Shown: one piece after another, positions 7,388 to 64,000 of the stretch
How the letters are laid out: each line of letters opens with the position of its first letter
Position numbering within the stretch: the first letter of the stretch is position 1
Source of the DNA: an uncultured Candidatus Saccharibacteria bacterium
GTDB lineage: Bacteria > Patescibacteriota > Minisyncoccia > Phycocordibacterales > SBAW01
Reading direction: 5' to 3'
Length of the DNA: 64,000 bases
Assembly (NCBI GenBank): GCA_964615415.1
Contig: CAZTNI010000002.1
Span: forward strand, 104,687-168,686
Made by a program: the position numbers and the translations under genes
Notes under the pieces: generated by a model
The model's input: the letters and a program-made list of their open reading frames with translations, nothing else
Told to the model about the DNA's origin: nothing
Database searches by the model: none

Positions 7388-7417
7388 AGCCGCTCCCTAG
7401 GGAGCGGCTTTTCTTAT
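7387..7417. terminator. bidirectional intrinsic terminator
   Basis: AAGCCGCTCCC-TAG-GGGAGCGGCTT + TTTCTTATTT between convergent genes. Confidence 0.7.
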
Positions 7418-8907
7418 TTCAATATTTCCCACATGCCGGGGGACTGTGCGCCGCCCATACTGAAGACTGCTACGCCGCGCACACCTAAGCGCTTCGCAAG
7501 AGCTACCTTGTCGGCAATAGCTTGTGCATCGCTCCATGTCATGTAGTTAAATGGCTGCAGAGAATTTCCTAATTGTGACCCGAGATTTTGTGTTACAGAA
7601 GTCGTCGGTGTTGTTTGTTGTGTTTGCGTTGATTCGCTTCCTGTTGGCGCAAGTGTTGCAAGCTGGGAAGGGTAGTACGTAAAGCCAACTTCGTTTGCAC
7701 TGGTGCGCAGCGGTGTAATGCCAAGCTTTGCAGCAATATCAGTTGCATACTTGGGGTTAAATGCCCAGAGTCGTTGATATTTAAAACTACCATCTGCTTG
7801 CGGCGTTACTTCGTACTCGTAGCCGTAGGTTGCAACACCGACAATAATTTTGTTGCGCGAAATAGTTTGCGCAGCAAGGGTTACAAGAGTTTCTACCCAG
7901 CCGGTATCTGCAACCGGTGCATATGGCGCGGAACGCGCGATGTTAAGTCGGCGGTCGACGGTGCCTTGGTCGTAAGCCATTATTTCCACACGGTCGCAAT
8001 ACTTATTGAGCGCGTAGTAGTCGTTTGCGTAGTTGGTGGCATCTGGCGGAATCGTTTGTCCGGGTAAGTAGCGATTCTCAAGTGGCATGCGGGCCTCGAT
8101 GGTGCAGTAGACCCACTTGTTGCCCATACGTTGATACAGCCCTTTGAGGAATGTTGAGAAGTAATCTATTGTTTCGTGTTTCTTCGCTTCGAAGTCGATG
8201 TCAATGCCATCCCAGCCCTGCGCTTTCACAAGCGCAGCAATCTCATCCTCAAGCGCGATACGCGTTGTTTGGTTACTCAAGATGCGATGCATCTCTTCGC
8301 CGTCTCCCCACATAATAGAAGGTACTACGCGTACGTTTTGACGTTTTGCTTCTGCAATGAATGAAAGCCAAGGCTCTTTGTTGGTTATGCCGGTGCGGTC
8401 TACCAACTTTCCATTACTGTCTACACTAAGGGCAAACGGCATCACGCTTTTAAGTTGTGACAGACGGGGAAGTACGTCTTGTGTTGCAGATGCTACTCTC
8501 CAGTCGGGAAGCCATCCAGAAAATTCAAATGCTCCTGTTGCGCGGGGAGTTAAAGCCCCGCTGATAGTTCCGGGGTTTTGTATTCCTGGTACAACAGAGG
8601 TGCTGCCCAGACCGAGTGCAGCTTGGGTGCGAGGTCCAACAATGCCATACCCCGAGACGGCCGCTCCCGAGCAAATGATGCCTTTGTCGCACTGAAATTT
8701 TTTAACTGCTGCTTCAGTGAGTGGTCCAAAGTATCCCGTATTTTTTCCTGCTGCCAAGTATCCCTGAGCGATAAGTGTGTTTTGGAGTGCAGTCACGTCG
8801 CTGCCAGACATGCCGGAAGAAAGCGAACGTGTCGCAGCAAAAGTAGTAAGAGGGGATGCAAAGGCACAAGCGAACACAATAGATGTAAATACAAAAAAGC
8901 GCTTCAT
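7414..8907 (-). CDS. secreted peptidoglycan-binding domain + glycoside hydrolase family 18 protein
   Basis: Signal peptide; PG_binding_1-like LSSGMSGSDVTALQNTLIAQGYL...FGPLTEAAVKKFQ; GH18 catalytic motif WDGIDIDFE (DxxDxDxE). Confidence 0.7.
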   Translation of the reverse strand: MKRFFVFTSIVFACAFASPLTTFAATRSLSSGMSGSDVTALQNTLIAQGYLAAGKNTGYFGPLTEAAVKKFQCDKGIICSGAAVSGYGIVGPRTQAALGLGSTSVVPGIQNPGTISGALTPRATGAFEFSGWLPDWRVASATQDVLPRLSQLKSVMPFALSVDSNGKLVDRTGITNKEPWLSFIAEAKRQNVRVVPSIMWGDGEEMHRILSNQTTRIALEDEIAALVKAQGWDGIDIDFEAKKHETIDYFSTFLKGLYQRMGNKWVYCTIEARMPLENRYLPGQTIPPDATNYANDYYALNKYCDRVEIMAYDQGTVDRRLNIARSAPYAPVADTGWVETLVTLAAQTISRNKIIVGVATYGYEYEVTPQADGSFKYQRLWAFNPKYATDIAAKLGITPLRTSANEVGFTYYPSQLATLAPTGSESTQTQQTTPTTSVTQNLGSQLGNSLQPFNYMTWSDAQAIADKVALAKRLGVRGVAVFSMGGAQSPGMWEILK

Positions 8908-8996: not shown

Positions 8997-9491
8997 ATGC
9001 GCGAGAGAGGTTTTACTCTTATTGAGCTTTTGGTAGTCATCGCTATTATCGGCATTTTGGCAGGACTTGTGTTGAGTTCTCTGAGCACAGCGCGTACTAA
9101 CGCGCGGACCGCTGCTATTAAATCCGGTGTAAATGAATTTCGTAAATTAATGGAGTTCGAATATATAGCGACCGGGAGTTACACCAATTTAAATAAACTG
9201 TGGGTAGGAACGGGCACGTCTTGCGCGGCGCGCGGTTACGCAGGTGCATATGCAGCCAAAGCAGTTGAGATCTGCGAAAATTTGATAAATAATATCGGCA
9301 GTAGTGTGACGCTTGCGTTCCATACCGGAGTAGATACAGCGAGCGGATTCAGTAATGCAAGCCAGTATGCCATCATGGCTCGTCTGCCGAGTGGTACGTT
9401 TTATTGTGTTGGTTCGAGCGGCAAAACCTCTGATACAGAAAACGGTTCAGGCGGTGTGTGGGCGTCACCCGGGTGTTGGGGAAATCCGTAA
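8997..9491 (+). CDS. type IV pilin (prepilin-type N-terminal cleavage/methylation domain)
   Basis: MRERG|FTLIELLVVIAIIGILA is the class III signal peptide and N-methylation motif. Confidence 0.75.
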   Translation: MRERGFTLIELLVVIAIIGILAGLVLSSLSTARTNARTAAIKSGVNEFRKLMEFEYIATGSYTNLNKLWVGTGTSCAARGYAGAYAAKAVEICENLINNIGSSVTLAFHTGVDTASGFSNASQYAIMARLPSGTFYCVGSSGKTSDTENGSGGVWASPGCWGNP

Positions 9492-52761: not shown

Positions 52762-53058
52762 ATGATCTACGGGGCAGTACTTGCACTCCATATTGTTGCT
52801 GCGTGTGTAACTTTTGCAGTTATTGCGGGTGTAGGCATTGCGCTTTTGAAGCAAATGCATCGTTTCTATAAACCACTGGGTCTTTCGCTCGCTCTCGTTG
52901 CGCTTGTACAAATTGCAAGCGGCGTCATGATGATCGTACTTAATCCGGAACTCTCTGTACTAAAAGTTGGTCTGCACTTACTTGTGTACCTTGGCGTGTG
53001 TGTGATGGTTGAGGGTGCGCTCTACCTTAAGGCGCGCTCAGTTGCATGGACTTCTTAA
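52762..53058 (+). CDS. small membrane protein upstream of cyoA
   Basis: ~99 aa, 3 TM helices; start MIYGAVLALH follows the terminator; overlaps the cyoA start. Confidence 0.4.
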   Translation: MIYGAVLALHIVAACVTFAVIAGVGIALLKQMHRFYKPLGLSLALVALVQIASGVMMIVLNPELSVLKVGLHLLVYLGVCVMVEGALYLKARSVAWTS

Positions 53059-53861
53059 ATTTTTTTGACGTCTTAAACCCTGCGGGAACTATCGCCCTTG
53101 CGGAGCGCGGACTTATGATCCACGCAGCACTGTTCATGACTATAGTCACCATTGCGGTCTTTGGTCTGACTTTTTTCTTTGCGTGGTATTACCGCGCAGG
53201 GAACACGAAGGCGAAATATACTCCCGACTGGCAGCACTCGCGGATGGAGGAACTTGTCTGGTGGGCGATCCCACTCGAAATTATTCTTGTACTTGGAGCA
53301 TTAACGTGGACGAGTACACACAACCTCGACCCGCGTAAACCACTTTCAGCAGAACCGCCGCTTGTGGTGCAAGTGGTGGCGCTGGATTGGAAGTGGCTGT
53401 TTGTGTATCCGGAAGAACATATTGCGACGGTTAATTATGTGCGCATCCCGGTTAATAAACCGGTGCGATTTGAAATTACTGCCGACGCGCCGATGAACTC
53501 GTTTTGGATCCCGCGCTTGGGCGGACAAATTTACGCGATGACGGGCATGGTGAATCATTTGAACTTAGATGCAACCGAAGAGGGAACGTTTAAGGGATTG
53601 TCTGCGAACTATAGCGGTGAAGGGTTTGCAGATATGAAATTTACAGTCGAAGCGACCTCGCAGGAGGAGTTTGATGCATGGGTAGCACAGACAAAAATGC
53701 AGCACGCAGTACTAACAACCGACTCCTACGCTGCGCTTGCGGCACCGAGTGTGGTCGAAGAGCCTGTGTATTACGGAATAGTCGAATATAATTTATTCGA
53801 CCAGATCGTAGGAAAATTCATGGGGCACGCACATGAAGTGAATGAACACGCACATCAGTAA
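53046..53861 (+). CDS. cyoA: quinol oxidase subunit II (CyoA/QoxA-like, no CuA ligands)
   Basis: 2 TM helices plus cupredoxin-like domain NSFWIPRLGGQIYAMTGMVNHLNL without the CuA Cys/His set. Confidence 0.8.
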   Translation: MDFLNFFDVLNPAGTIALAERGLMIHAALFMTIVTIAVFGLTFFFAWYYRAGNTKAKYTPDWQHSRMEELVWWAIPLEIILVLGALTWTSTHNLDPRKPLSAEPPLVVQVVALDWKWLFVYPEEHIATVNYVRIPVNKPVRFEITADAPMNSFWIPRLGGQIYAMTGMVNHLNLDATEEGTFKGLSANYSGEGFADMKFTVEATSQEEFDAWVAQTKMQHAVLTTDSYAALAAPSVVEEPVYYGIVEYNLFDQIVGKFMGHAHEVNEHAHQ

Positions 53862-53864
53862 TAT

Positions 53865-55673
53865 ATGTTTGGAAACCTTACCTTAGACGCTTTCATACAT
53901 GGTCCGATAGAAACCGGCGCGCAGCTCATGGTTGTACTTGGCGGTGTGGCTATCGCCCTTTTGCTCACCGTCTTTAAACGGTGGGGATGGTTCTATAAAG
54001 AGTGGCTCACGACCGTCGACCATAAAAAGATCGGCATCATGTACATCATCCTCGCGGTGATCATGCTCTTCCGTGGTGCGATGGATGCGTTTATGATGCG
54101 TGCACAACAAGCGATAGCGGTGGGTGACAGCGTGGGCTACCTCGACCCAAACCACTTTTCGCAAATCTTTACGGCGCATGGGATCATTATGATCTTTTTT
54201 GTCGCTATGCCCTTGATGTTCGGGCTCATCAACTACATGGTCCCGCTCCAAATTGGTGCGAAGGATGTCGCGTTCCCGTTCCTGAACTCTGTCTCGTTTT
54301 GGCTTACTGCTGCAGGGGCGATGCTACTTAATGCGTCGTTAGTGATAGGTGAATTCGCGGCAACGGGGTGGCTCGCATATCCGCCGCTCTCCGGTATTGA
54401 GTACAGTCCTGGTGTTGGAGTCGACTACTACATTTGGGCGCTCCAGATAGCAGGTGTCGGTACACTCCTTTCGGCAATCAACTTTATTGCGACGATTCTG
54501 AAGATGCGGAAGGCAGACATGAAGTTGATGCAGATGCCTATCTTCCCGTGGACCGTGTTCGGCTCGATGCTGCTCGTCTTGTTTGCATTCCCGATCCTTA
54601 CCGCAACGCTCGCACTCTTGTCTTTGGACCGTATCTTCGGCATGCACTTCTTTACCACCGACCTTGGCGGGAATGCCATGATGTACATCAACCTGATTTG
54701 GGCATGGGGTCACCCGGAGGTGTACATTCTTATCCTCCCCGCGTTCGGTATCTTTTCAGAAATTGTGCCAACGTTCGCGCAGAAAAAACTCTTCGGCTAC
54801 ACCTCTATGGTTGTTGCAACGATGATGATCGTCTTTTTGTCGTTCATTGTGTGGGTGCACCACTTCTTTACGATGGGTGCTGGCGCAAATGTGAACGCAT
54901 TCTTCGGCATCATGACCATGGCTATTGCTGTACCAACCGGCGTAAAAGTATTTAACTGGCTCTTTACGATGTTCCGTGGTCGCATCATCTACAAAACCCC
55001 GATGCTGTGGTTTATGGGATTCCTCGTCACCTTTGTAATCGGCGGCATGACGGGTGTCTTGATGTCGATCCCTGCGGCGGACTTCCAGCTCCACAACAGT
55101 TTGTTCCTTGTGGCGCACTTCCACAACATGATCATCGGCGGCGTATTGTTTGGCATGTTTGCGGGGCTCTCGTATTGGTTCCCAAAAATATTTGGATTCA
55201 TGTTGAACGAGCGCTTGGGCAAGTGGGCATTTTGGTCATGGATCATCGGTTTTTTGGTCGCGTTTTTGCCAATTTATGCTGCAGGGTTGATGGGTATGAC
55301 GCGCCGCTTAAGCCAAGTGGAGCCGCAGTTCCAGCCACTCCTTATTGTTGCTGCAATTGGTGCGTGTATCATTGCGCTCGGTATTTTCTTCCAAGTGCTG
55401 CAAATTGTGGTCAGTATTGTGCAGCGCAAACAGCATCCTGCAGGAAATAATCCATGGAACGGAACGAATTTGGAGTGGACACTGCCGTCGCCGCCGCACT
55501 ACGAGCCGTACGACCCGAAGCACAACACGCTGCTTGGTGTGATGATAGCGGGGCTTAGCTTCTTTCTGGGGTTTGGGATCATCTGGCACATATGGTGGCT
55601 CGCAGCCGTCGCAGCTGTGGCGATAGTTGGCGGACTTATCCTGCGTACATTTAGATATGAAGGAGCACACTAA
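53865..55673 (+). CDS. cyoB: heme-copper quinol oxidase subunit I
   Basis: [23 protein letters not shown] and His-ligand pattern; 602 aa. Confidence 0.95.
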
Positions 55674-56217
55674 CACAGCAACATTCGGATTTTGGATCTA
55701 CCTCATGAGCGATGTGGTGCTTTTTGCATCGCTCTTTGCAACGTTTGCGGTGCTGCAAGGCGCAACGTTCGGTGGACCGACTCCAAAAGAATTATTTGAC
55801 CTACAGTTTGTGTTGTTTGAAACGCTGATCCTTCTTACCTCAAGTTTTACTGTGGGATTAAGTCTTTTGTCTGCACATGCAGGGAAGCGACAAGCAACGC
55901 TTATCTTCCTCGGCATGACCCTGCTTTTAGGCTTAGGATTTTTGGCGATGGAACTGACCGAGTTTCGTCATCTTATTGCGGAAGGGCATGGTCCCGGAAC
56001 GAATGCATATCTCTCCTCATTCTTTACGCTCGTCGGGACGCACGGACTCCATGTCTTTTTTGGCGCACTATGGATGATAGTGACGATGGTCTTTATTGCG
56101 CTGCGCGGCCTTGACCGTGCGCTCACAAAACTTGCGTGCCTCTCGCTGTTTTGGCACTTCCTTGATGTGATCTGGATATTTATTTTTACGCTGGTGTATC
56201 TTATTCCGATGCTATAA
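55657..56217 (+). CDS. cyoC: quinol oxidase subunit III
   Basis: [24 protein letters not shown] is a conserved subunit III N-terminus; start within the overlap with cyoB is uncertain. Confidence 0.75.
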
Positions 56218-56222
56218 ATCGT

Positions 56223-56552
56223 ATGCTTACTTCATCGCGCACATATGTTATAGGGTTCGCACTCTCTACACTGCTGACGCTTGCTGCGTTTGGCTTGGTC
56301 TTTCAATACATAGCAGGAAGTTTGCCCATAGCGCGCGAGTGGCTCATTGTTGCGCTTCTGGTGTTCGCGGTCGCGCAGTTGATCGTACAGGTAACGTGCT
56401 TCCTCCACTTAGGATCAGAAACAAAACCGCGCTGGCAACTCATCACGTTCCTCTTTTCCCTCCTTGTTGTAGTAATTTTAGTAGGAGGCAGCATTTGGAT
56501 CATGACCCATCTCACGCACAACATGATGCAAGACACCTCGCACGTGTGGTAG
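56223..56552 (+). CDS. cyoD: quinol oxidase subunit IV
   Basis: 109 aa, 3 TM helices, position in operon. Confidence 0.7.
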   Translation: MLTSSRTYVIGFALSTLLTLAAFGLVFQYIAGSLPIAREWLIVALLVFAVAQLIVQVTCFLHLGSETKPRWQLITFLFSLLVVVILVGGSIWIMTHLTHNMMQDTSHVW

Positions 56553-56644
56553 GGTTGGAGCGAAGTGCTTTGCAAAAAAGAGGCTATGACTTGGGCTAGC
56601 GCCCCCGGAGCGCACTCTTTTTTGTAATGCACGAGCTACTACAC

Positions 56645-57370
56645 ATGTCCGCAATCATTAAAAAATATTACTACCTCGCAAAGCCGGGGATCGTGCGCAG
56701 TAACGCGCTCGCTGCTGCGGCAGGTTTTGTATTTGCTTCAAGCGGCGCGATCAATTGGGGAGTGTTTGCCGCAATGTTGTTGGGATTGATAGGAATCATC
56801 GCAAGTGGCTGCGTGTTTAATAATTACTACGACCGCGACATAGACGCGCGCATGGAACGAACGGCAAAACGCGCCCTTGTGCGCGGCACTATTTCCGACG
56901 CACATGCACTTATATATGGAACAGTATTAGGAGTCCTGGGTGGGGCAGTGCTGCTTTTATATACTAATTTCCTGACGTTTGCTGTCGCGCTTGTCGGCTT
57001 TGGTGTGTACGTGCTCCTCTATACGCCGGTTAAACACAAACACCCTGTAGCGCTGTTTATCGGCGCTGTTGCGGGCGCAGTGCCACCGGTCGTGGGTTAT
57101 GTTGCGGTAACCAATACGTTCGACTGGTGGGCAGTGGTTCTCTTTACCTTTTTATATGTGTGGCAGTTGGTGCACTTTATGGCGATAGCGGTCTATCGGT
57201 ATGACGAGTATACGGCTGCTGGCGTGCCTCTCTATATAAAGGAGCGTCCGTCAGATGCCACAAAACAGAAAGCAAAAAAAGTATTTCACGTCTCGCTCGT
57301 TGTACTGCTTTTGTTTTGTGCAGGTCTTGTCGTGTATAGTTTATTGACTTTATTTAAAATTATTATATAA
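56645..57370 (+). CDS. cyoE: protoheme IX farnesyltransferase (heme O synthase)
   Basis: UbiA-family polytopic protein after cyoD; YYDRDIDARMERT motif. Confidence 0.8.
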   Translation: MSAIIKKYYYLAKPGIVRSNALAAAAGFVFASSGAINWGVFAAMLLGLIGIIASGCVFNNYYDRDIDARMERTAKRALVRGTISDAHALIYGTVLGVLGGAVLLLYTNFLTFAVALVGFGVYVLLYTPVKHKHPVALFIGAVAGAVPPVVGYVAVTNTFDWWAVVLFTFLYVWQLVHFMAIAVYRYDEYTAAGVPLYIKERPSDATKQKAKKVFHVSLVVLLLFCAGLVVYSLLTLFKIII

Positions 57371-57453
57371 TACCGTCGGTTTTGAACTTTGTAATCTACT
57401 GCAGTTTCAAGATGCATTTCGCATCTCGATAATCAACAAGGAGAGGTACGTTC

Positions 57454-59013
57454 ATGTACAATCGTTCTCTGACTGCTGCTGCGGCGCTCCGTGCTACAGT
57501 GGTGCCCGGACTGTATCGGGAGCTGCCGCTCGAGTCTATCCTTCCGGAGTTCTTTTACGACAAAGGTTACGACCTTGGCGTTGTAAAAGATCTTGCACGG
57601 AAGAGTTATCTCGGCAGTATGCTCGATGGCCTGTTTATGCGTGGCGGAGCTTTCGCTGATGCTTCATCAGTGTTCGAATACTTTGCATTGCGTGACGTGG
57701 GTGGTGTTCGGCGTCATGGAATCACAATTCCATACACCGGCACGCCCGACCAAAACCTCGAAATCGACCGTGTTCTCACGACACTGTCTGACTCTAGTCG
57801 GTTCCTAGGGGAAGGAGCGGGTTCTTCGTTTAAAACGAGGCACTTCTCTCATCCGCCTGATTACCTGCACGTGCCTATAGCGATCGTCGGATATGGTGCG
57901 GCGGGGATCATGGTCCACCGGGCACTCCGCGACCTCGGCTTCGAGAAAATAACCATCTTCGAACGGCGCGAGGCGCTCGGGATCTGGTCCCAGCGGAATG
58001 TCTTTGATGGATCCAGGAACAATCCTCGCAGAATCGAATTCCAGGATTTTAGACTCGACTCAGCTCCGGGAGGAGGAGATGAAGTGAAGAAGTTTCTCCT
58101 TGACTCAAGCATCTTAAGACCGGATCGGCTCGAAGTCGACGAGATCGTTCCTTCCGACCTTGGGCACTTACTCAGTGTCAAAGGAAAAGAGCCTGATGTG
58201 CGGACGTTTCCGATCGTCATCAACTGCTGCGGTATCGGCAAGCCGGTGCCGCTTTCCGACCCCGAACGTATGCTGGGGCCAGATGAGCGGGTGCCGGCGG
58301 TTCGCTGGCAGATGCAGCTCGAGGAAAAGGACGCTCGGAGAAAGCGTTTCATCCTGATCGGTCTTGGGAATTCGACCGCGGAAATGCTTCGGCAGATCCA
58401 CGCCCTCCAGGACGAAGGCGTTGACGTCGACTATCGGGTCCTTACCCACTATCCGCGCGACGCGGTCTTCAACCCCTCTCACTCTGTGGAGTTGCACGGG
58501 AGGATCTATCGAGTCTTTCGCGACCTAAGTCGGCCTGAGCTAACGTCCTTTCAGGGCGATCTGCCAGTCTCCCGAGAAGACTACTACCGGGCGCTTCACG
58601 GCGGCCGGATATTTTCTGGAGTCACGCAGTGGGATGTGTCTCAAAACGGCAGGCTCGGCGTTTGGCAAGGAAATGATAGAGGAGACGCTCATACGGAGCT
58701 GTCCTACGACGCTCTGTATGCGTTGATCGGGTATCGCCACTCGAAGGAGAGTTTCGAGGCGATGGGGTGCACCTACGACCACGTTGGAAGGTGTGCTCAA
58801 TACGACTACGACGGCGAGATGATCCGTACGCCGGGCAAAACCGGTGGGGATCGCGTGCATAAGGGATACTTCGGGTTCGGTGCGGTGCTGGATGCACCGC
58901 ATAACCGCAACACGAGCGTCATTCCCGGCATGCTATTCCGCCTCCCGGACCTCATCTTCGGCATCACTATGCGAGCCGGAGAGTGGGTCCGCCGGGAGCG
59001 GGTCAAGCATTGA
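57454..59013 (+). CDS. FAD/NAD(P)-binding class-B flavoprotein monooxygenase-like protein
   Basis: Two Rossmann dinucleotide motifs (IAIVGYGAAGIMVHRAL...IFERRE and FILIGLGNSTAEM); ~60% GC; 130-aa N-terminal extension. Confidence 0.5.
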   Translation: MYNRSLTAAAALRATVVPGLYRELPLESILPEFFYDKGYDLGVVKDLARKSYLGSMLDGLFMRGGAFADASSVFEYFALRDVGGVRRHGITIPYTGTPDQNLEIDRVLTTLSDSSRFLGEGAGSSFKTRHFSHPPDYLHVPIAIVGYGAAGIMVHRALRDLGFEKITIFERREALGIWSQRNVFDGSRNNPRRIEFQDFRLDSAPGGGDEVKKFLLDSSILRPDRLEVDEIVPSDLGHLLSVKGKEPDVRTFPIVINCCGIGKPVPLSDPERMLGPDERVPAVRWQMQLEEKDARRKRFILIGLGNSTAEMLRQIHALQDEGVDVDYRVLTHYPRDAVFNPSHSVELHGRIYRVFRDLSRPELTSFQGDLPVSREDYYRALHGGRIFSGVTQWDVSQNGRLGVWQGNDRGDAHTELSYDALYALIGYRHSKESFEAMGCTYDHVGRCAQYDYDGEMIRTPGKTGGDRVHKGYFGFGAVLDAPHNRNTSVIPGMLFRLPDLIFGITMRAGEWVRRERVKH

Positions 59014-59054
59014 GCTTCATGCAACTCCAACAAAGAAACGGAGGAACACGCACT

Positions 59055-59681
59055 ATGACGCTCACTCAACAGGGCCGAGCCGCGCGAGCGGCAGAAGCCC
59101 CGATCGTTGAAGGGCTTCCGCCCTTTCCCGGAATCATTGCGGCGATGCACCTCACTCCTACACTCGGGGTGCATCTGTGTGGCCTGGCGCAGACACTCAT
59201 GGTCGAGCCCTTCCCGGGTTCGACCATGGAGCGGAGCGAACGCGAGCTGATCGCGCTCCATGTCTCTGTGCGAAACGGCTGCTACTTCTGCGCCGATTCG
59301 CACGGGGAATTCGTCCGCCATCTCCTTCTTGGTGATGGGTGTGACGATGTATACTCCGCACGCGTGGTGGAGGAACTGAAAGAGGGCTGGCTTGAGAGCC
59401 AGCCCGACATGATGAAGGTCCTTCTCAAGATCGCAGAGCAGGTGGCGGAAGACCCGCTTACGCTCTCTGCAGACCTCGTCAGTAGGGCGCAGGACCTCGG
59501 GGCAACTCCTGGCGATATTCACCTTACGGTGCTTATCGCGAGTGCGTTCTCGATGTACAACCGGATCGTCGACGGTCTTCGGGCCGTAACGCCGGGCGAC
59601 CCAGCCGCCTTTACCGAGGCAGCACAGCGGGTCGTCGCTCACGGCTACATGCCGCCGAGTGCAACCCCTGCCCACCTGTAA
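59055..59681 (+). CDS. AhpD/carboxymuconolactone decarboxylase-family protein
   Basis: NGCYFCADSH (CxxCxxxH AhpD-like motif); AGGAGG RBS; terminator at 59702-59732. Confidence 0.6.
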   Translation: MTLTQQGRAARAAEAPIVEGLPPFPGIIAAMHLTPTLGVHLCGLAQTLMVEPFPGSTMERSERELIALHVSVRNGCYFCADSHGEFVRHLLLGDGCDDVYSARVVEELKEGWLESQPDMMKVLLKIAEQVAEDPLTLSADLVSRAQDLGATPGDIHLTVLIASAFSMYNRIVDGLRAVTPGDPAAFTEAAQRVVAHGYMPPSATPAHL

Positions 59682-59701
59682 GGGCAGAAAACAAGTTCTT
59701 C

Positions 59702-59732
59702 AGCCACCCCAAACGGGGTGGCTTTTTTCTTA
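59702..59732. terminator. bidirectional terminator
   Basis: AGCCACCCC-AAAC-GGGGTGGCT + TTTTTTCTT. Confidence 0.75.
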
Positions 59733-60260
59733 CACACTTTTATTTTTTATACTCCAAAGGTGGATGAGGTAGGGCACAATGGAGCCGATAAGGAACGCGC
59801 CCACCGCGCTGGTAAGCAAAGTAAGTGGCTGCATATTGTGGAAAAGAACCGTCGTAAGTCCTACTAAGTTAATAAGCACGAGCGCGCTCATTATGGTGTA
59901 GAAGTTAAGGAAGGTGAGCCAACTAAACTCTTTTACTTCGTCAGTATGAATATGCGCAAAGTGTCGCATGTAGTGCATAAGGCCTTCCATTTTGATGCGC
60001 AACTCGGCAGCGCGGACGCCTACAAAATAACCAGTCAACACTCCTACAAAAAACGCAGGGATCGTGTAGGGGAGTGTAATGAGCGTATATTCGCGGAAGG
60101 AAATAGTGAGGGTGAGGATAATAAATATATAGAACGAGGTCATCAGCAGACGCGCACGACGGAAGTAGTCGTCCACAGCAAATTTAATCGCGGTGCTGTA
60201 GATAAAAAACGCCGTTAAAAGCGCAATAGTTAAAGTAATAGTGAGCGGAAGCTGTTCCAT
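59730..60260 (-). CDS. hypothetical polytopic membrane protein
   Basis: 176 aa with 5-6 TM helices. Confidence 0.4.
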   Translation of the reverse strand: MEQLPLTITLTIALLTAFFIYSTAIKFAVDDYFRRARLLMTSFYIFIILTLTISFREYTLITLPYTIPAFFVGVLTGYFVGVRAAELRIKMEGLMHYMRHFAHIHTDEVKEFSWLTFLNFYTIMSALVLINLVGLTTVLFHNMQPLTLLTSAVGAFLIGSIVPYLIHLWSIKNKSV

Positions 60261-60516
60261 AGAATCTTGTTAAAACTGTATCATATAAATGAACCACCCC
60301 TTACGTAGCGTATGTATAGGCATGTTCTCCCACTAAAAAACGGCTTTGTTGCAAAGTAGAAAAAAATTCTACACACATTTCGCTTTCTACGACAAAAAAT
60401 ATTTCTAGTAAACTTGCGCACTTGTCAAAGAAATTTTCGAAAATCTTATACACAGCAATAAACCCTTAATTCAGGAGTCCTTCATTTTTTGTACTCTACA
60501 ATTCGAGCGTGTGTGA

Positions 60517-60536
60517 TTCATGAATTAGTTCATGAA
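60517..60536. promoter_or_regulatory. tandem palindromic 8-mers TTCATGAA-TTAG-TTCATGAA in the tasA-like leader
   Basis: Two self-complementary TTCATGAA copies 4 nt apart inside the 480-bp AT-rich region upstream of 60744. Confidence 0.35.
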
Positions 60537-60743
60537 GGAGTTCCGTTCCTTTATCACTAAGATTCCGCAACAGCACTATATGGGAATAGTGTCGGTGAGA
60601 ATTTGCAGCAGGGTTCCCGCAACAAAGGCCACGTTTGGTCGCGCAACTTGTGCGTGCCTAAGCGCGGTCTTTTTTGTTGCCACCTTTGGTCGATGAAGGT
60701 GGTGCCCGCTGTGTTTGTGGTTACTAACTAATTAAAATAATTA

Positions 60744-62300
60744 ATGAAACGAATCATTATGAGTTTGGGCGCCATCGTAGTTGTTGGCGCAATAGCAGCA
60801 AGTGCAACGGGCGCATTCTTTAGCGACACAGAAACATCAACAGGTAACACGTTTGCAGCGGGAGATATCGACTTGAAGATTGATAACGAGAGTTATGTAA
60901 CAGATGTGAACGGTACCTTGGTTGCAAGTCCAAATAACTCTTGGAGCATTTCCGACCTTACTAACCAACTCTTCTTTAGCTTTGCAGACGTAAAGCCAGG
61001 AGATGTGGGCGAAGACACGATCTCAGTTCATGCGGGTAGTAACGATGCGTATGCATGTATGGCCGCTGACATAACTGCTACACCAGAAAATACACTTGTT
61101 GACCCAGAAGTGGACGCGCTTGATGCTGGTCCAGCTAATGGAGACAATGGTGAACTTCAGAACTTCCTTAATTTCTCATTCTGGAACGATGACGGAGATA
61201 ATGTCTACGAATCTGATGAGACGATCATTCAGAGTCTTAGTGGTTCTGCAAACACAATCTTTAACGGTGCGTGGAGTCAGATCGGTACAACGACTATTCC
61301 AGGCAACTCAACTGCGTATGTTGCTAAGGCGTGGTGCTTCGGTACTCTCACGCCAAATCCAGTTGCTCAGGATAATGGTTCAGACGAAGGTCGTAGTCCT
61401 TTATCAGACGGGACTGGGTTCACTTGCGATGGTTCAGGTAACAACAACATTGCACAGACCGACGGTGTAGTAATGGATGTTTCCTTCTATGCAGTCCAGG
61501 CTCGTAATAACAGTGACTTTAGCTGTTCAAGTCTTCCTCCGTTTGTTGGCGAGGATAATGAAGTCGTAGTTGCAGACTATGCGACTGGCTTTGAACCAGG
61601 CGAAGGTTTTGCGCCGGGTAATATTAACGGTCAGAGTGGATGGAAAAAGACCGGAACGTACGATGCAGTAGTTGTTAATGATCCTGTGATTGCTAACGCA
61701 CAATCGCTCCGCATCTCTAATGCGGTTACAAGTGGTGCGTTTGGTGACCAGACTTTTGCTCCTGACCTTGCAAATGGAGCAGGAGAGACAGGTATTGGAG
61801 ACAGTGAAAATCATTTCGAAGCGCAGTTCGATATCAAATCAACACAGGCTGCGCAACAGCCTGGCTTGATACTTTCTGTCTCGCCAGATGATGGAAACGG
61901 AGCCCGTATGAGCTATCTTCGCTTTGAGGATCAAGCTGATGGTATCCATGTGTTCTTCTCTGAGGCTCAAAACGCAGGTCCATTACCTACCGCTACTAAC
62001 TTCACAAGTGAAGACATAGCTACTATCGATCGCACTAGTGCACACACGATTAAATTCGTTATGGACTTTGTAGATGGTCCAGGCAACGATGTTGTAAAGA
62101 TCTACGTTGACGGTGTCCTCAAGAAAACAGGAACCAGTTGGGAAAATTACTACCGCTTCGACCCTGAACAAACTGGCGGCGGCAACCTCCTCTCTGAGGT
62201 AGATACCCTTATCTTCCGCGCAGGAGGCACCGCAGCTCCAGCAACGAGTGGTAATGGCTTCCTCTTCGACAAAGTAACGCTTACAACTAGCAATATCTAG
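60744..62300 (+). CDS. TasA/CalY/camelysin-family secreted protein with SipW-type signal peptide
   Basis: MKRIIMSLGAIVVVGAIAASATGAFFSDTETSTGNTFAAGDIDL is a SipW-cognate signal peptide plus camelysin N-domain; large C-terminal extension. Confidence 0.8.
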   Translation: MKRIIMSLGAIVVVGAIAASATGAFFSDTETSTGNTFAAGDIDLKIDNESYVTDVNGTLVASPNNSWSISDLTNQLFFSFADVKPGDVGEDTISVHAGSNDAYACMAADITATPENTLVDPEVDALDAGPANGDNGELQNFLNFSFWNDDGDNVYESDETIIQSLSGSANTIFNGAWSQIGTTTIPGNSTAYVAKAWCFGTLTPNPVAQDNGSDEGRSPLSDGTGFTCDGSGNNNIAQTDGVVMDVSFYAVQARNNSDFSCSSLPPFVGEDNEVVVADYATGFEPGEGFAPGNINGQSGWKKTGTYDAVVVNDPVIANAQSLRISNAVTSGAFGDQTFAPDLANGAGETGIGDSENHFEAQFDIKSTQAAQQPGLILSVSPDDGNGARMSYLRFEDQADGIHVFFSEAQNAGPLPTATNFTSEDIATIDRTSAHTIKFVMDFVDGPGNDVVKIYVDGVLKKTGTSWENYYRFDPEQTGGGNLLSEVDTLIFRAGGTAAPATSGNGFLFDKVTLTTSNI

Positions 62301-62403
62301 TTCTCTCTAGCCGTTCACAGTCTCGCTTAGGCGGGGCTGTGCGGGCTGGTGAGAATTCTCCAGCATCGTTGGTAAATTAATAATTTTTATTCAGACATTC
62401 ATT

Positions 62404-63789
62404 ATGAGACGCATACTTCTTGGGCTGATAGCTATCGTGGGTGCAGGGTCTGCACTTTACGTCGGCAGTACGGGGGCATTCTTTAGCGACACGGAAACAT
62501 CCTCAGGTAACACGTTTGCTGCAGGCGCTATCGACCTTCTGGTCGACAACGAAAGCTACTACAACGGCGTGCTGAACCAAGGCACCACGTGGGAGGCAGT
62601 AAACCTCACTATCCAGAAGTTTTTTGACTTCGACGACGTAAAACCTGCCGACTACGGCGAGGATACTATTTCGCTCCATGTCGACACCAACGATGCGTAC
62701 CTCTGTGCTGAAGTATCGCTTACATCGAACGACGACAACGGCATTAACGAGCCTGAAGGCGATGCGGGTGACACGACCGACGGTCCGGGGAATGGCGAGC
62801 TTGCCGACGCAATGAACTTTGTCTGGTGGGCGGACGATGGCGACAATGTGCTTGAAACGAACGAGCAAGTAATCTCGCAGGGTCCTATTGGTGCACTCGA
62901 CCTTAACGCGACGACTACTGTTGCGCTTGCAGACTCTGCAACAAATATCTGGGGCGGCGTGGGACCAATTGATGGCGACACCACTTACTACGTTGGTAAA
63001 GCATGGTGCTTTGGTGCGATAGGCACTGCTCCCATTACGCAAGATGGTAATGGGACAACCATGTCTCCTGCTGGCGACAATAATGGCAATCAGACTATCG
63101 GCGAGCCAGAAGACGGCGGCATAACCTGCAACGGTGCGGACCTCGGAAACGAAACGCAGACAGACTCTGTTACTGCAGATGTCTCCTTCCGTGCAGTGCA
63201 GGCGCGCAATAACCCGAGCTTCCTGTGTGTGCCGCCTCCACCACCACCGACCTTTGGCGCCTGCGAACTTCCCACGCTCGCATATGCCGACAGTGTCGTT
63301 TCTTCAAGCCAAGGTGTTCGTAAAAATAACACTGCAGTTCTTGCGAACCGCAGCAACACCGCTTCAGTCCTTGGTGCACCACAATCATCTGGTCTTGCGT
63401 CCGACCCAGCAGTACCGGCAGGGAGCTTCTTCTCCCTCGGGTTCAAAAATAGTGGTGCAACGGATGGTGGCTCTATCATCGTCGAGTTTACCGATAACGT
63501 TATAGTGGACGGTCCGGGTAACGACCTCCAGGTGTGGGAAGTAACGGGCGGCACCTATCCAGATGAATTCGTAAAAGTTGAAGTCTCGCAAGATGGAGTA
63601 AGTTGGTTTACTGCGGCTGCAAGTCTCTCGCGCGATGCACAGGCTGACCTTGCAGGTTCGGGTCTTGCGTGGGCAAAGTTCATCCGCTTAACCGATGTAA
63701 CTCCTATTGGTCCGTTTGAAGCAGAGGCAGATGCCTACGACCTAGACGCCTTCAGCGCACTTAACTGCGGCGTGCCTCTGATTGATTAA
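62404..63789 (+). CDS. TasA/CalY/camelysin-family secreted protein (paralog 2)
   Basis: MRRILLGLIAIVGAGSALYVGSTGAFFSDTETSSGNTFAAGAIDL; PPPPPT linker then a distinct C-terminal domain. Confidence 0.8.
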   Translation: MRRILLGLIAIVGAGSALYVGSTGAFFSDTETSSGNTFAAGAIDLLVDNESYYNGVLNQGTTWEAVNLTIQKFFDFDDVKPADYGEDTISLHVDTNDAYLCAEVSLTSNDDNGINEPEGDAGDTTDGPGNGELADAMNFVWWADDGDNVLETNEQVISQGPIGALDLNATTTVALADSATNIWGGVGPIDGDTTYYVGKAWCFGAIGTAPITQDGNGTTMSPAGDNNGNQTIGEPEDGGITCNGADLGNETQTDSVTADVSFRAVQARNNPSFLCVPPPPPPTFGACELPTLAYADSVVSSSQGVRKNNTAVLANRSNTASVLGAPQSSGLASDPAVPAGSFFSLGFKNSGATDGGSIIVEFTDNVIVDGPGNDLQVWEVTGGTYPDEFVKVEVSQDGVSWFTAAASLSRDAQADLAGSGLAWAKFIRLTDVTPIGPFEAEADAYDLDAFSALNCGVPLID

Positions 63790-63812
63790 AACAACAAATC
63801 GACTTCCTGCTG

Positions 63813-64000
63813 ATGAAAAAAACTTCACGACACATAGGTAAGAGAGCGCTCCTCATTTTTGGAGCACTCTCCCTTGTCGTGGGTCTCTCGCAACTACGTG
63901 CAGAGGCGACGGGTACAACGTTTGCGGGTGGCAACTTTGACCTGAAGGTAGACAGTGAGGCGAGCTATAACGGCGCTCCTGTCCCGGGAGGCACATGGTC
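63813..64000 (+). CDS. TasA/camelysin-family protein (paralog 3, 5' partial; runs off window)
   Basis: MKKTSRHIGKRALLIFGALSLVVGLSQLRAEATGTTFAGGNFDLKVD; no stop before the window end. Confidence 0.55.
   Translation, partial: MKKTSRHIGKRALLIFGALSLVVGLSQLRAEATGTTFAGGNFDLKVDSEASYNGAPVPGGTW

Follow-up and report, generated by a model that had tools for sequence, protein, structure and literature searches.

A conserved operon of TasA-like paralogs and a SipW-type signal peptidase in Patescibacteria: a candidate donor-strand fibre with exchangeable outer domains

Three tandem open reading frames (ORFs) lie at the end of a 64,000-nucleotide stretch of DNA (the window) from an uncultured bacterium recorded as Candidatus Saccharibacteria (assembly GCA_964615415.1, contig CAZTNI010000002.1), and they raise the question of whether members of the candidate phyla radiation (CPR, Patescibacteria) build a fibre of the kind that TasA forms in Bacillus subtilis. 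An earlier note, made from the window alone, had read the three ORFs (here P1, P2 and P3) as TasA/camelysin paralogs with distinct C-terminal domains, preceded by a long regulatory leader and with no gene for the cognate signal peptidase, sipW, in view. The CPR make up a large and mostly uncultured share of bacterial diversity and many of them live attached to other cells; to our knowledge, how they attach is poorly understood beyond type IV pili. We found that the three ORFs belong to an operon that is conserved in the CPR and has its own SipW-type peptidase, and we think it likely that this operon builds a secreted donor-strand-exchange fibre of the TasA superfamily.

The ORF coordinates agreed with those of the note, including the length of P1 (518 aa) and the open end of P3. 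An exact look-up of P2 retrieved an 18.4-kb contig, L001, that matches window positions 54024-64000 with 0 mismatches over 9,977 bases and adds 8.4 kb to the window (Table 1). On this contig the peptidase gene starts 815 nt beyond the window end, directly 3' of P3, where the note had proposed to look for it. Within the window itself, both a six-frame scan for SGSMxP and a phmmer search with the L001 peptidase were negative, and the absence of sipW from view, rightly observed, is an effect of the window's edge. The note had also named a genome devoid of SipW-type peptidases as the outcome that would speak against its reading; instead, the protein encoded right after P3 scores 105 bits against TIGR02228 (archaeal-type signal peptidase I; cut-off 51.85 bits), matches the Bacillus SipW model NF046067 over its full length with 114.6 bits, and has the motifs SGSMEP, THR and GDAN. 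A dedicated SipW/archaeal-type signal peptidase belongs to the operon, which consists of six genes in the order P1, P2, P3, peptidase, P4 and a small membrane protein, P5. No homolog of P5 was found in the related loci, so it is left out of the conserved parts.

The window ends within an operon that is conserved in the CPR. Homolog searches returned more than 2,000 matches each, nearly all of them from the CPR where the source was named, and a scan of species-representative genomes gave 77 related loci (78 with L001), all Patescibacteria by title or content. A sipW homolog directly follows one to four same-strand tandem paralogs in 73 of the 78 loci, and the paralogs number two to four in 70 of these 73. 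The lineages with the operon are Paceibacterota and the Kaiser-, Nomura-, Zambryski-, Woese-, Levy- and Curtissbacteria. Record titles look unreliable in this set: many loci titled 'Saccharibacteria' have Paceibacterota as their closest relatives, and four (L019, L053, L058, L059) have a typical CPR operon under metagenome-assembled genome (MAG) titles reading 'uncultured Gammaproteobacteria'. The general kind of system is already known. Databases name the homologs SipW-dependent-type signal peptide-containing, TasA family, CalY family or M73 family metallopeptidase proteins, and PF12389 homologs in Patescibacteria have been noted in a survey (PMC9245690). It is the CPR variant that is little studied, and we found no description of the CPR operon in the literature on TasA, SipW or camelysin in CPR groups.

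Both P1 and P2 contain the motif TGAFFSDTETSxGNTFAAGxIDL and pass TIGR04088, the NCBIfam model of the SipW-dependent-type signal peptide (motif AFFSD.E.S.GNTFAAG.LDL), with 21.4 and 20.1 bits at a curated cut-off of 19 bits. The claim that all three ORFs carry this signal and motif holds for these two and fails for P3, which lacks AFFSDTETS and matches neither TIGR04088 nor any Pfam model. Identity between P1 and P2 is 46% across the first ~275 residues, after which the two proteins are unrelated, in agreement with the C-terminal divergence reported before, and the proline linker of P2 is present as CVPPPPPPTFGAC.

How TasA-like these proteins are was examined with hhalign, using 151 CPR N-domains and 117 TasA-family proteins gathered with B. 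subtilis TasA. The full domains aligned at 96.4% (P = 1.3e-9, score 70) over 203 colinear columns, residues 1-254 corresponding to TasA 4-234, while reversed or shuffled controls scored 7-16 with P >= 0.13. The mature N-termini (~75 residues, hydrophobic signal removed) gave 95.3% (P = 2.3e-8, score 41) and the body alone 7.3% (P = 0.005, score 25), so the signal is concentrated in the N-terminus and the last strand. A TasA-family profile is needed for this result, as a single TasA sequence gave a last-strand match only (2.6%), and a phmmer search of P1 against PDB sequences produced chance matches only and did not find TasA (8AUR). In the alignment the donor strand of TasA, residues 28-38 (PMC9674648), 28-AFNDIKSKDAT-38, lies opposite P1 24-AFFSDTETSTG-34, and the two cores also share an F.F.DxKPGD strand and a last strand N..Q.D.....F.A.Q. 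These alignments show remote homology of the core to the TasA superfamily. The middle of the domain has diverged in the CPR: its four conserved cysteines suggest two disulfides and its invariant acidic loop, (W)xDDGDNVxE, a Ca2+ site, and neither Pfam nor NCBIfam has a model for the ~215-residue core.

The assignment of the N-domain to TasA/CalY thus stands as a remote relationship, although the Pfam model of the family, PF12389 (Peptidase_M73, camelysin/TasA; gathering score 22.5 bits, profile length 196), stays below threshold and reaches only the first ~50 residues: it matched P1 with 22.4 bits (residues 7-56) and P2 with 21.7 bits (residues 13-50), in both cases within profile positions 9-56. 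These weak matches, together with the name 'M73 family metallopeptidase' that NCBI gives to some relatives (P0076), could suggest that P1-P3 are metalloproteases of the camelysin (M73) type. In all 12 proteins, namely P1, P2 and ten relatives, PF12389 is limited to profile positions 3-56, that is, to the signal and first strand, and the camelysin/M73 label on CPR proteins derives entirely from the signal peptide region. The body has no Pfam match, no metal-binding protease motif was seen in it, and the protease assignment of CalY is itself likely a misidentification (PMC11580942). On these grounds we reject the protease reading, to which we give next to no chance.

P3 and P4, encoded on either side of the peptidase gene, are complementary pieces of the layout seen in P1 and P2. 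The N-terminus of P3 reads MKKTSRHIGKRALLIFGALSLVVGLSQLRAEATGTTFAGGNFDLKVD (...LRAEATGTTFAGGNFDLKVD), and its alignment with P2 (37% identity over 246 aa) begins exactly at TGTTFAGG in P3 and SGNTFAAG in P2. A hidden Markov model (HMM) of the family covers P3 at positions 40-275 only and P4 at positions 10-49 only, so that P3 is a body without a strand and P4 a strand without a body. P3 is a genuine core-domain paralog in which the segment aligning with the TasA donor strand is missing. By the -3/-1 rule it is most likely cleaved between AEA and TG, three residues before TFAGG, as compared with eleven in TasA. P4 is made up of an N-terminal region of 43 residues, a single hydrophobic helix, the motif LAYFSDTETTLANQMRAG and an acidic tail rich in Pro and Glu; it has no folded body and passes TIGR04088 with 19.5 bits against the cut-off of 19. 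Beyond its core, P3 continues with a KPPKPPKPPK linker and a Thr/Asn/Gly-rich tail. In other CPR genomes, proteins of 800-1000 aa encoded close to the operon contain several such tails in tandem; the two that were scanned (L029, L010) have DUF11 and a peptidoglycan-binding domain as well, a hint at a module associated with the cell envelope.

A similar split recurs among the relatives. The xFSDxE motif is missing from the sipW-adjacent paralog in 28 of the 73 loci, a count made by regular expression that also takes in a few paralogs merely varying the motif, and most of these paralogs have a P3-type N-terminus (...G.TFATG...LELKIDS). Of the paralogs that lie two genes further upstream, just 4 of 45 lack the motif, and of those three genes further upstream, 1 of 11. 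A strict motif test found a strand-motif protein in at least 44 of the 73 loci, fused to SipW in 25 and as an adjacent or overlapping ORF in 19. In the fusions (340-613 aa) the strand-motif protein stands at the C-terminus of SipW, and the extension consists of a basic linker, a second hydrophobic helix, a SipW-cognate strand motif (e.g., AYFHDIEASIDN), a beta-rich segment and an acidic tail; Pfam has no match beyond the peptidase domain, except for a Lamin Tail Domain in L015. The peptidase is here joined to what is apparently its own substrate, the two being separate genes with a 4-nt overlap in the window's genome.

The C-terminal domains of P1 and P2 were approached through AlphaFold monomer models. 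Overall pLDDT was 72 for P1 and 78.8 for P2, with patchy values in the C-terminal domain of P1; the cores of both models are confident and all-beta, while pLDDT falls below 50 at residues 15-41 of P1 and 17-42 of P2, as fits a strand that lies outside the monomer fold. The C-terminal domain of P1 has no Pfam or NCBIfam match and is predicted to adopt a ConA-like beta-sandwich fold. Its top Foldseek match in the PDB is the PL20 lyase 2zzj (E 3.6e-8, TMt 0.52), followed by 1vav (0.49), 4b1m (0.50), PL7 lyases, CBM66, legume lectins and calreticulin. Residues 275-461 of P2 likewise have no Pfam match, PF00754 included, and the C-terminal domain is predicted to be discoidin/CBM32-like, with Foldseek matches to neuropilin b1 (1kex), the chitobiase F5/8C domains 3f2z and 2kd7 and the CBM32 4a42 (probability 1.0, TMt 0.43-0.60). 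PF00754 itself is present in two relatives of other architectures. At the same position, relatives have SpaA-like PF19403, DUF642 PF04862, PF00754 or PF24514, or, in proteins of 287-303 aa (P0085, P0090, P0094), no domain at all, and this variety argues for a constant polymer-type core with exchangeable outer domains. The ConA-like domain of P1 (GNINGQxGWxKTG ... LFDxV) also occurs as stand-alone secreted proteins of ~317-350 aa with an ordinary signal peptide (P0116, P0117, P0119; e.g., in a Microgenomates MAG), and the domain therefore moves between architectures.

The same folds would be expected if P1-P3 were monomeric secreted or surface lectins, or polysaccharide-degrading enzymes, with a SipW-type signal peptide, the shared N-terminal beta-domain serving as a stalk or cell-wall module and no fibre being formed. 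The likeness of the C-terminal domains to carbohydrate-active folds (PL20, PL7 and CBM66 for P1, CBM32/discoidin for P2), the weak similarity of the core to TasA outside the N-terminus and the stand-alone ConA-like proteins are all consistent with such monomers. We nevertheless regard them as unlikely, given that the donor-strand region, the KPGD strand and the last strand of TasA are all conserved and colinear, that family members without any C-terminal domain exist, and that a strand-only protein and a strand-less paralog beside sipW in many loci are hard to explain for monomers.

In the fibre that we favour, P1 and P2 would be exported by the Sec pathway and cleaved by the SipW-type peptidase, which would expose the N-terminal strand (FFSDTETS...). 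The exposed strand of one subunit would insert into the beta-sandwich of the next, as in TasA, which polymerises by its N-terminal donor strand and loses function when residues 28-38 are deleted (PMC9674648, PMC10151520). The resulting extracellular fibre would be extended by P1, P2 and other modular, lectin-bearing paralogs, and would display lectin-type domains for glycans, possibly on host cells. More speculatively, we infer that P4 and P3 act as initiator and terminator. P4, a strand with no body, would start the fibre as TapA does, TapA being thought to donate the first strand (PMC9674648, PMC10151520), and in the many genomes where P4 is fused to SipW the initiator would need to be released by cleavage. 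P3, a body with no strand, would accept a strand and be unable to pass one on, and would hence end the fibre and perhaps anchor it through its Lys/Pro linker and Thr/Asn/Gly-rich tail. We hold this full scheme of a capped heteropolymer to be possible but doubtful, clearly below the fibre itself in likelihood. Related proposals exist: heteropolymers have been put forward for multi-paralog TasA/BsaA operons with a signal peptidase, and BsaA polymers grow with the newest subunit still anchored by its signal, before SipW cleavage (PMC11580942); TIGR02228-type peptidases and tip or anchor accessories are frequent in TasA-superfamily loci (bioRxiv 10.64898/2026.01.04.697558).

Several observations count against a fibre. 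No CPR member has been observed to form such a fibre, to polymerise these proteins or to process them. The core is only weakly TasA-like, as the hhalign result for the body shows; five body-only sequences (first ~46 residues removed) had no Pfam match at E <= 10, and the family HMM found nothing among PDB sequences at the same limit, TasA 8AUR included. TasA is also absent from the top 50 Foldseek matches of the P1 and P2 models, lists that are dominated by the C-terminal domains. The cleavage sites are placed by alignment only, and a P3 cut further upstream could retain a short, different N-terminal strand. Finally, a lectin function of the C-terminal domains is predicted from fold similarity (TM about 0.5), and lyases and glucanases are also found among ConA-like folds.

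A variant of the fibre would add to donor-strand exchange an intermolecular isopeptide lock between Asn and Lys with a catalytic Glu, as in the BsaA polymer of Clostridium perfringens, a member of the same superfamily encoded in a sipW operon with paralogs (PMC11580942). The CPR family has candidate residues in strand N35, K84 and E90 (KPGDxGED), which are invariant or nearly so, and the strand Asn, replaced in P3-type paralogs, is kept in P4 and in the six SipW fusions inspected with it (seven P4-type strands). The N-E-K triad is, however, predicted mainly for Clostridia and a few other groups, among which the CPR are not listed (PMC11580942); the candidates here come in the order N, K, E, as opposed to N35, E56, K74 in BsaA; and TasA, in which no isopeptide forms, has the KPGD Lys as well. 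We therefore consider such a lock improbable, somewhat more so than the monomer explanation.

Among the closest known systems is the tapA-sipW-tasA operon of B. subtilis (PDB 8AUR, 5OF1). It and the CPR operon both have a dedicated SipW-type (archaeal/ER-type) peptidase, substrates with the TIGR04088 signal, subunits in which the donor-strand region, KPGD strand and last strand motif are colinear, and an accessory protein, TapA there and putatively P4 here, with a strand-like N-terminus, although P4 lacks a TapA-like beta-sandwich. The CPR operon differs in its order (paralogs, sipW, strand-only protein), in having two to four paralogs where B. subtilis has one major subunit, in the ~215-residue core with its four conserved Cys and invariant DDGDNxxE loop that PF12389 misses, in the fusion of subunits to large lectin-type C-terminal domains, in the strand-less paralog P3, in the SipW-strand fusion of its relatives, and in that no SinR/AbrB system was found in the window or L001 (below). 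The sipW-bsaA-bsaB-bsaC operon of C. perfringens also combines SipW with several remote TasA paralogs, for which heteropolymers have been proposed (PMC11580942); there, in contrast, sipW comes first, lectin fusions are lacking, and the VWA-domain protein BsaC has no counterpart in the CPR operon.

Archaeal filaments (AbpA/AbpB bundling pili, AbpX, CanA cannulae and Tafi pili) would share with the CPR proteins a jelly-roll subunit with an N-terminal donor strand, a likeness that does not come from sequence comparison and that is presumed on the CPR side. A TIGR02228-type peptidase is often adjacent to AbpX, accessory tip and anchor proteins have been proposed for the AbpB and Tafi loci, and assembly of AbpX and CanA depends on calcium, to which the acidic DDGDN loop of the CPR core could be a parallel. 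The CPR proteins, for their part, stand nearer to the N-terminal motif of TIGR04088/TasA, and while the AbpX-associated peptidase has ten transmembrane helices, the CPR peptidase is of the usual short form or, in relatives, fused to the strand protein. Chaperone-usher pili offer a resemblance in logic only, with donor-strand joining, a terminating and anchoring subunit (PapH) and an adhesin-pilin fusion at the tip (FimH); with no homology and no chaperone, usher or outer membrane in the CPR, this is analogy and not membership.

The CPR operon is therefore a concrete candidate for an adhesive fibre with swappable domains of sugar-binding type. With strand-only, strand-plus-body and body-only proteins encoded by separate genes, it is also a natural setting in which to test how the growth of TasA-type fibres begins and ends. 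If correct, the initiator-terminator scheme would be the first built-in logic of this kind described for TasA-type fibres, and the capped fibre would be a candidate for the organelle with which CPR bacteria attach as episymbionts.

The note had further suggested that the leader upstream of P1 is under SinR/AbrB-type control, as is known for the Bacillus operon. The ~480-bp AT-rich region that it described is indeed present, 483 bp at 39.5% GC as compared with 50.6% for the window. Its candidate promoter, TTGTCA-N18-TTATAC, is likewise present, but the -10 element lacks A2 and T6 and was not called by a consensus scan, and the leader region contains 4 promoter-like sites where shuffles lead one to expect 4.4. 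The palindromes exist too, at counts compatible with chance: TTCATGAA occurs 3 times in the window (1.16 expected; equalled in 11 of 100 shuffles) and TTTTCGAAAA once (0.14 expected; equalled in 12 of 100). They are not kept in the leaders of the three closest relatives (L079-L081, with 80%, 76% and 66% protein identity), even in the closest one; these leaders are 465 to more than 600 bp long and hardly align. Searches of the leader with nhmmer and blastn against 80 related loci gave no similarity, and Rfam returned only a sub-threshold chance microRNA match for positions 59600-64000.

What the leaders of the operon family have in common is length and predicted structure, not sequence. The median gap upstream of the first paralog is ~420 bp (67 loci), as against 49 bp between paralogs. 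The predicted RNA fold of positions 60455-60745 has -91.8 kcal/mol and z = -3.35, a stability reached by 1 of 200 shuffles, and both TTCATGAA copies of the leader sit within hairpin stems of this fold. The 200 nt that precede the first paralog were also folded for 35 related loci, with a median z of -1.67 as against -0.65 for coding controls (Mann-Whitney p = 5e-4); this comparison, with coding sequence and not with other leaders, supports structured upstream RNA only loosely. Given this predicted structure, seen also in relatives, a structured 5' untranslated region fits better than a specific operator and is the more likely nature of the leader. An operator for a transcription factor of the SinR/AbrB kind would account for the palindromes, including the two TTCATGAA copies 12 nt apart, and long upstream regions are typical of the CPR operon family; set against the weak promoter match, the loss of the palindromes in the closest leaders, the strongly structured predicted RNA and the absence of any SinR or AbrB homolog (phmmer, 64-kb window and L001) or conserved operator, we judge such control to be very unlikely. 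Right after the P1 stop codon there is a further 11-bp hairpin, CACAGTCTCGC-TTAG-GCGGGGCTGTG, with two G-U pairs and without a T-run, which could set the ratio of P1 to downstream transcript.

Table 1. Positions of the operon, its leader and related features (window positions unless another contig or locus is named)
Feature	Sequence	Position	Strand	Remarks
Membrane-protein gene	window	59730-60260	-	divergent from leader and P1
Leader upstream of P1	window	60261-60743	+	
Promoter candidate	window	60422-60451	+	
Palindrome TTTTCGAAAA	window	60434-60443		inside spacer of promoter candidate
8-mer TTCATGAA, first copy	window	60517-60524	+	
8-mer TTCATGAA, second copy	window	60529-60536	+	
Predicted structured part of leader	window	60455-60743	+	
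Terminator-like hairpin with T-run	window	60648-60667	+	
Hairpin	window	60680-60702	+	
P1	window	60744-62300	+	ORF
P1, SipW-type signal peptide and putative donor strand	window	60744-60881	+	residues 1-46
P1, core domain	window	60882-61526	+	residues 47-261
P1, conserved Cys	window			residues 105, 198, 228, 261
P1, acidic loop	window	61185-61211		residues 148-156
P1, predicted ConA-like lectin/glucanase-type domain	window	61590-62297	+	residues ~283-518
Hairpin after P1	window	62316-62341		
P2	window	62404-63789	+	ORF, 461 aa
P2, signal and putative strand	window			residues 1-46
P2, core domain	window			residues 47-275
P2, acidic loop	window	62830-62856		residues 143-151
P2, Pro6 linker	window	63232-63252	+	
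P2, predicted discoidin/F5-8 type C (CBM32-like) domain	window	63253-63786	+	residues 284-461
P3, N-terminus	window	63813..64000	+	ATG at 63813, open at window end
P3, complete	L001	9790-10788		332 aa
P3, Thr/Asn/Gly-rich tail	L001	10525-10785		
SipW/archaeal-type signal peptidase	L001	10792-11397		201 aa
P4	L001	11394-11987		197 aa, 4-nt overlap with peptidase gene
P5, small membrane protein	L001	after P4		149 aa
F-type ATP synthase operon	L001	13290 onward		downstream of the fibre operon
SipW ORFs with C-terminal extension (examples)	L003	8705-10246		
	L006	9651-11354		
	L049	9990-11831		
	L002	9404-10666		
Tandem-tail proteins	L029	586-3582		
	L010	11738-14524		
	L076	361-3165		
	L007	11174-13666		
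	L069	11260-13699		

Upstream of the operon, positions 53046-57370 of the window contain a quinol-oxidase-type terminal oxidase operon, with genes for COX2 (with a COX_ARM motif), COX1 (502 bits), COX3, COX4_pro and a UbiA-family heme O synthase, in a genome that is otherwise CPR-like; aerobic respiratory complexes are uncommon in the CPR. It is followed by a GC-rich patch at 57454-59681 (56-58%, as compared with ~50% for the window and 42% just downstream), which encodes a 519-aa protein with a weak NAD/FAD-binding motif only and an AhpD/CMD-like protein, has long ORFs overlapping on both strands, and may be a horizontal acquisition. Export of the TasA-like BsaA polymer in C. perfringens requires type IV pilus proteins (PMC11580942). 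The minus strand of the window encodes a type IV pilin with an N-terminal methylation motif (8997-9491) and a GH18 chitinase-like protein with a peptidoglycan-binding domain (7414-8907).

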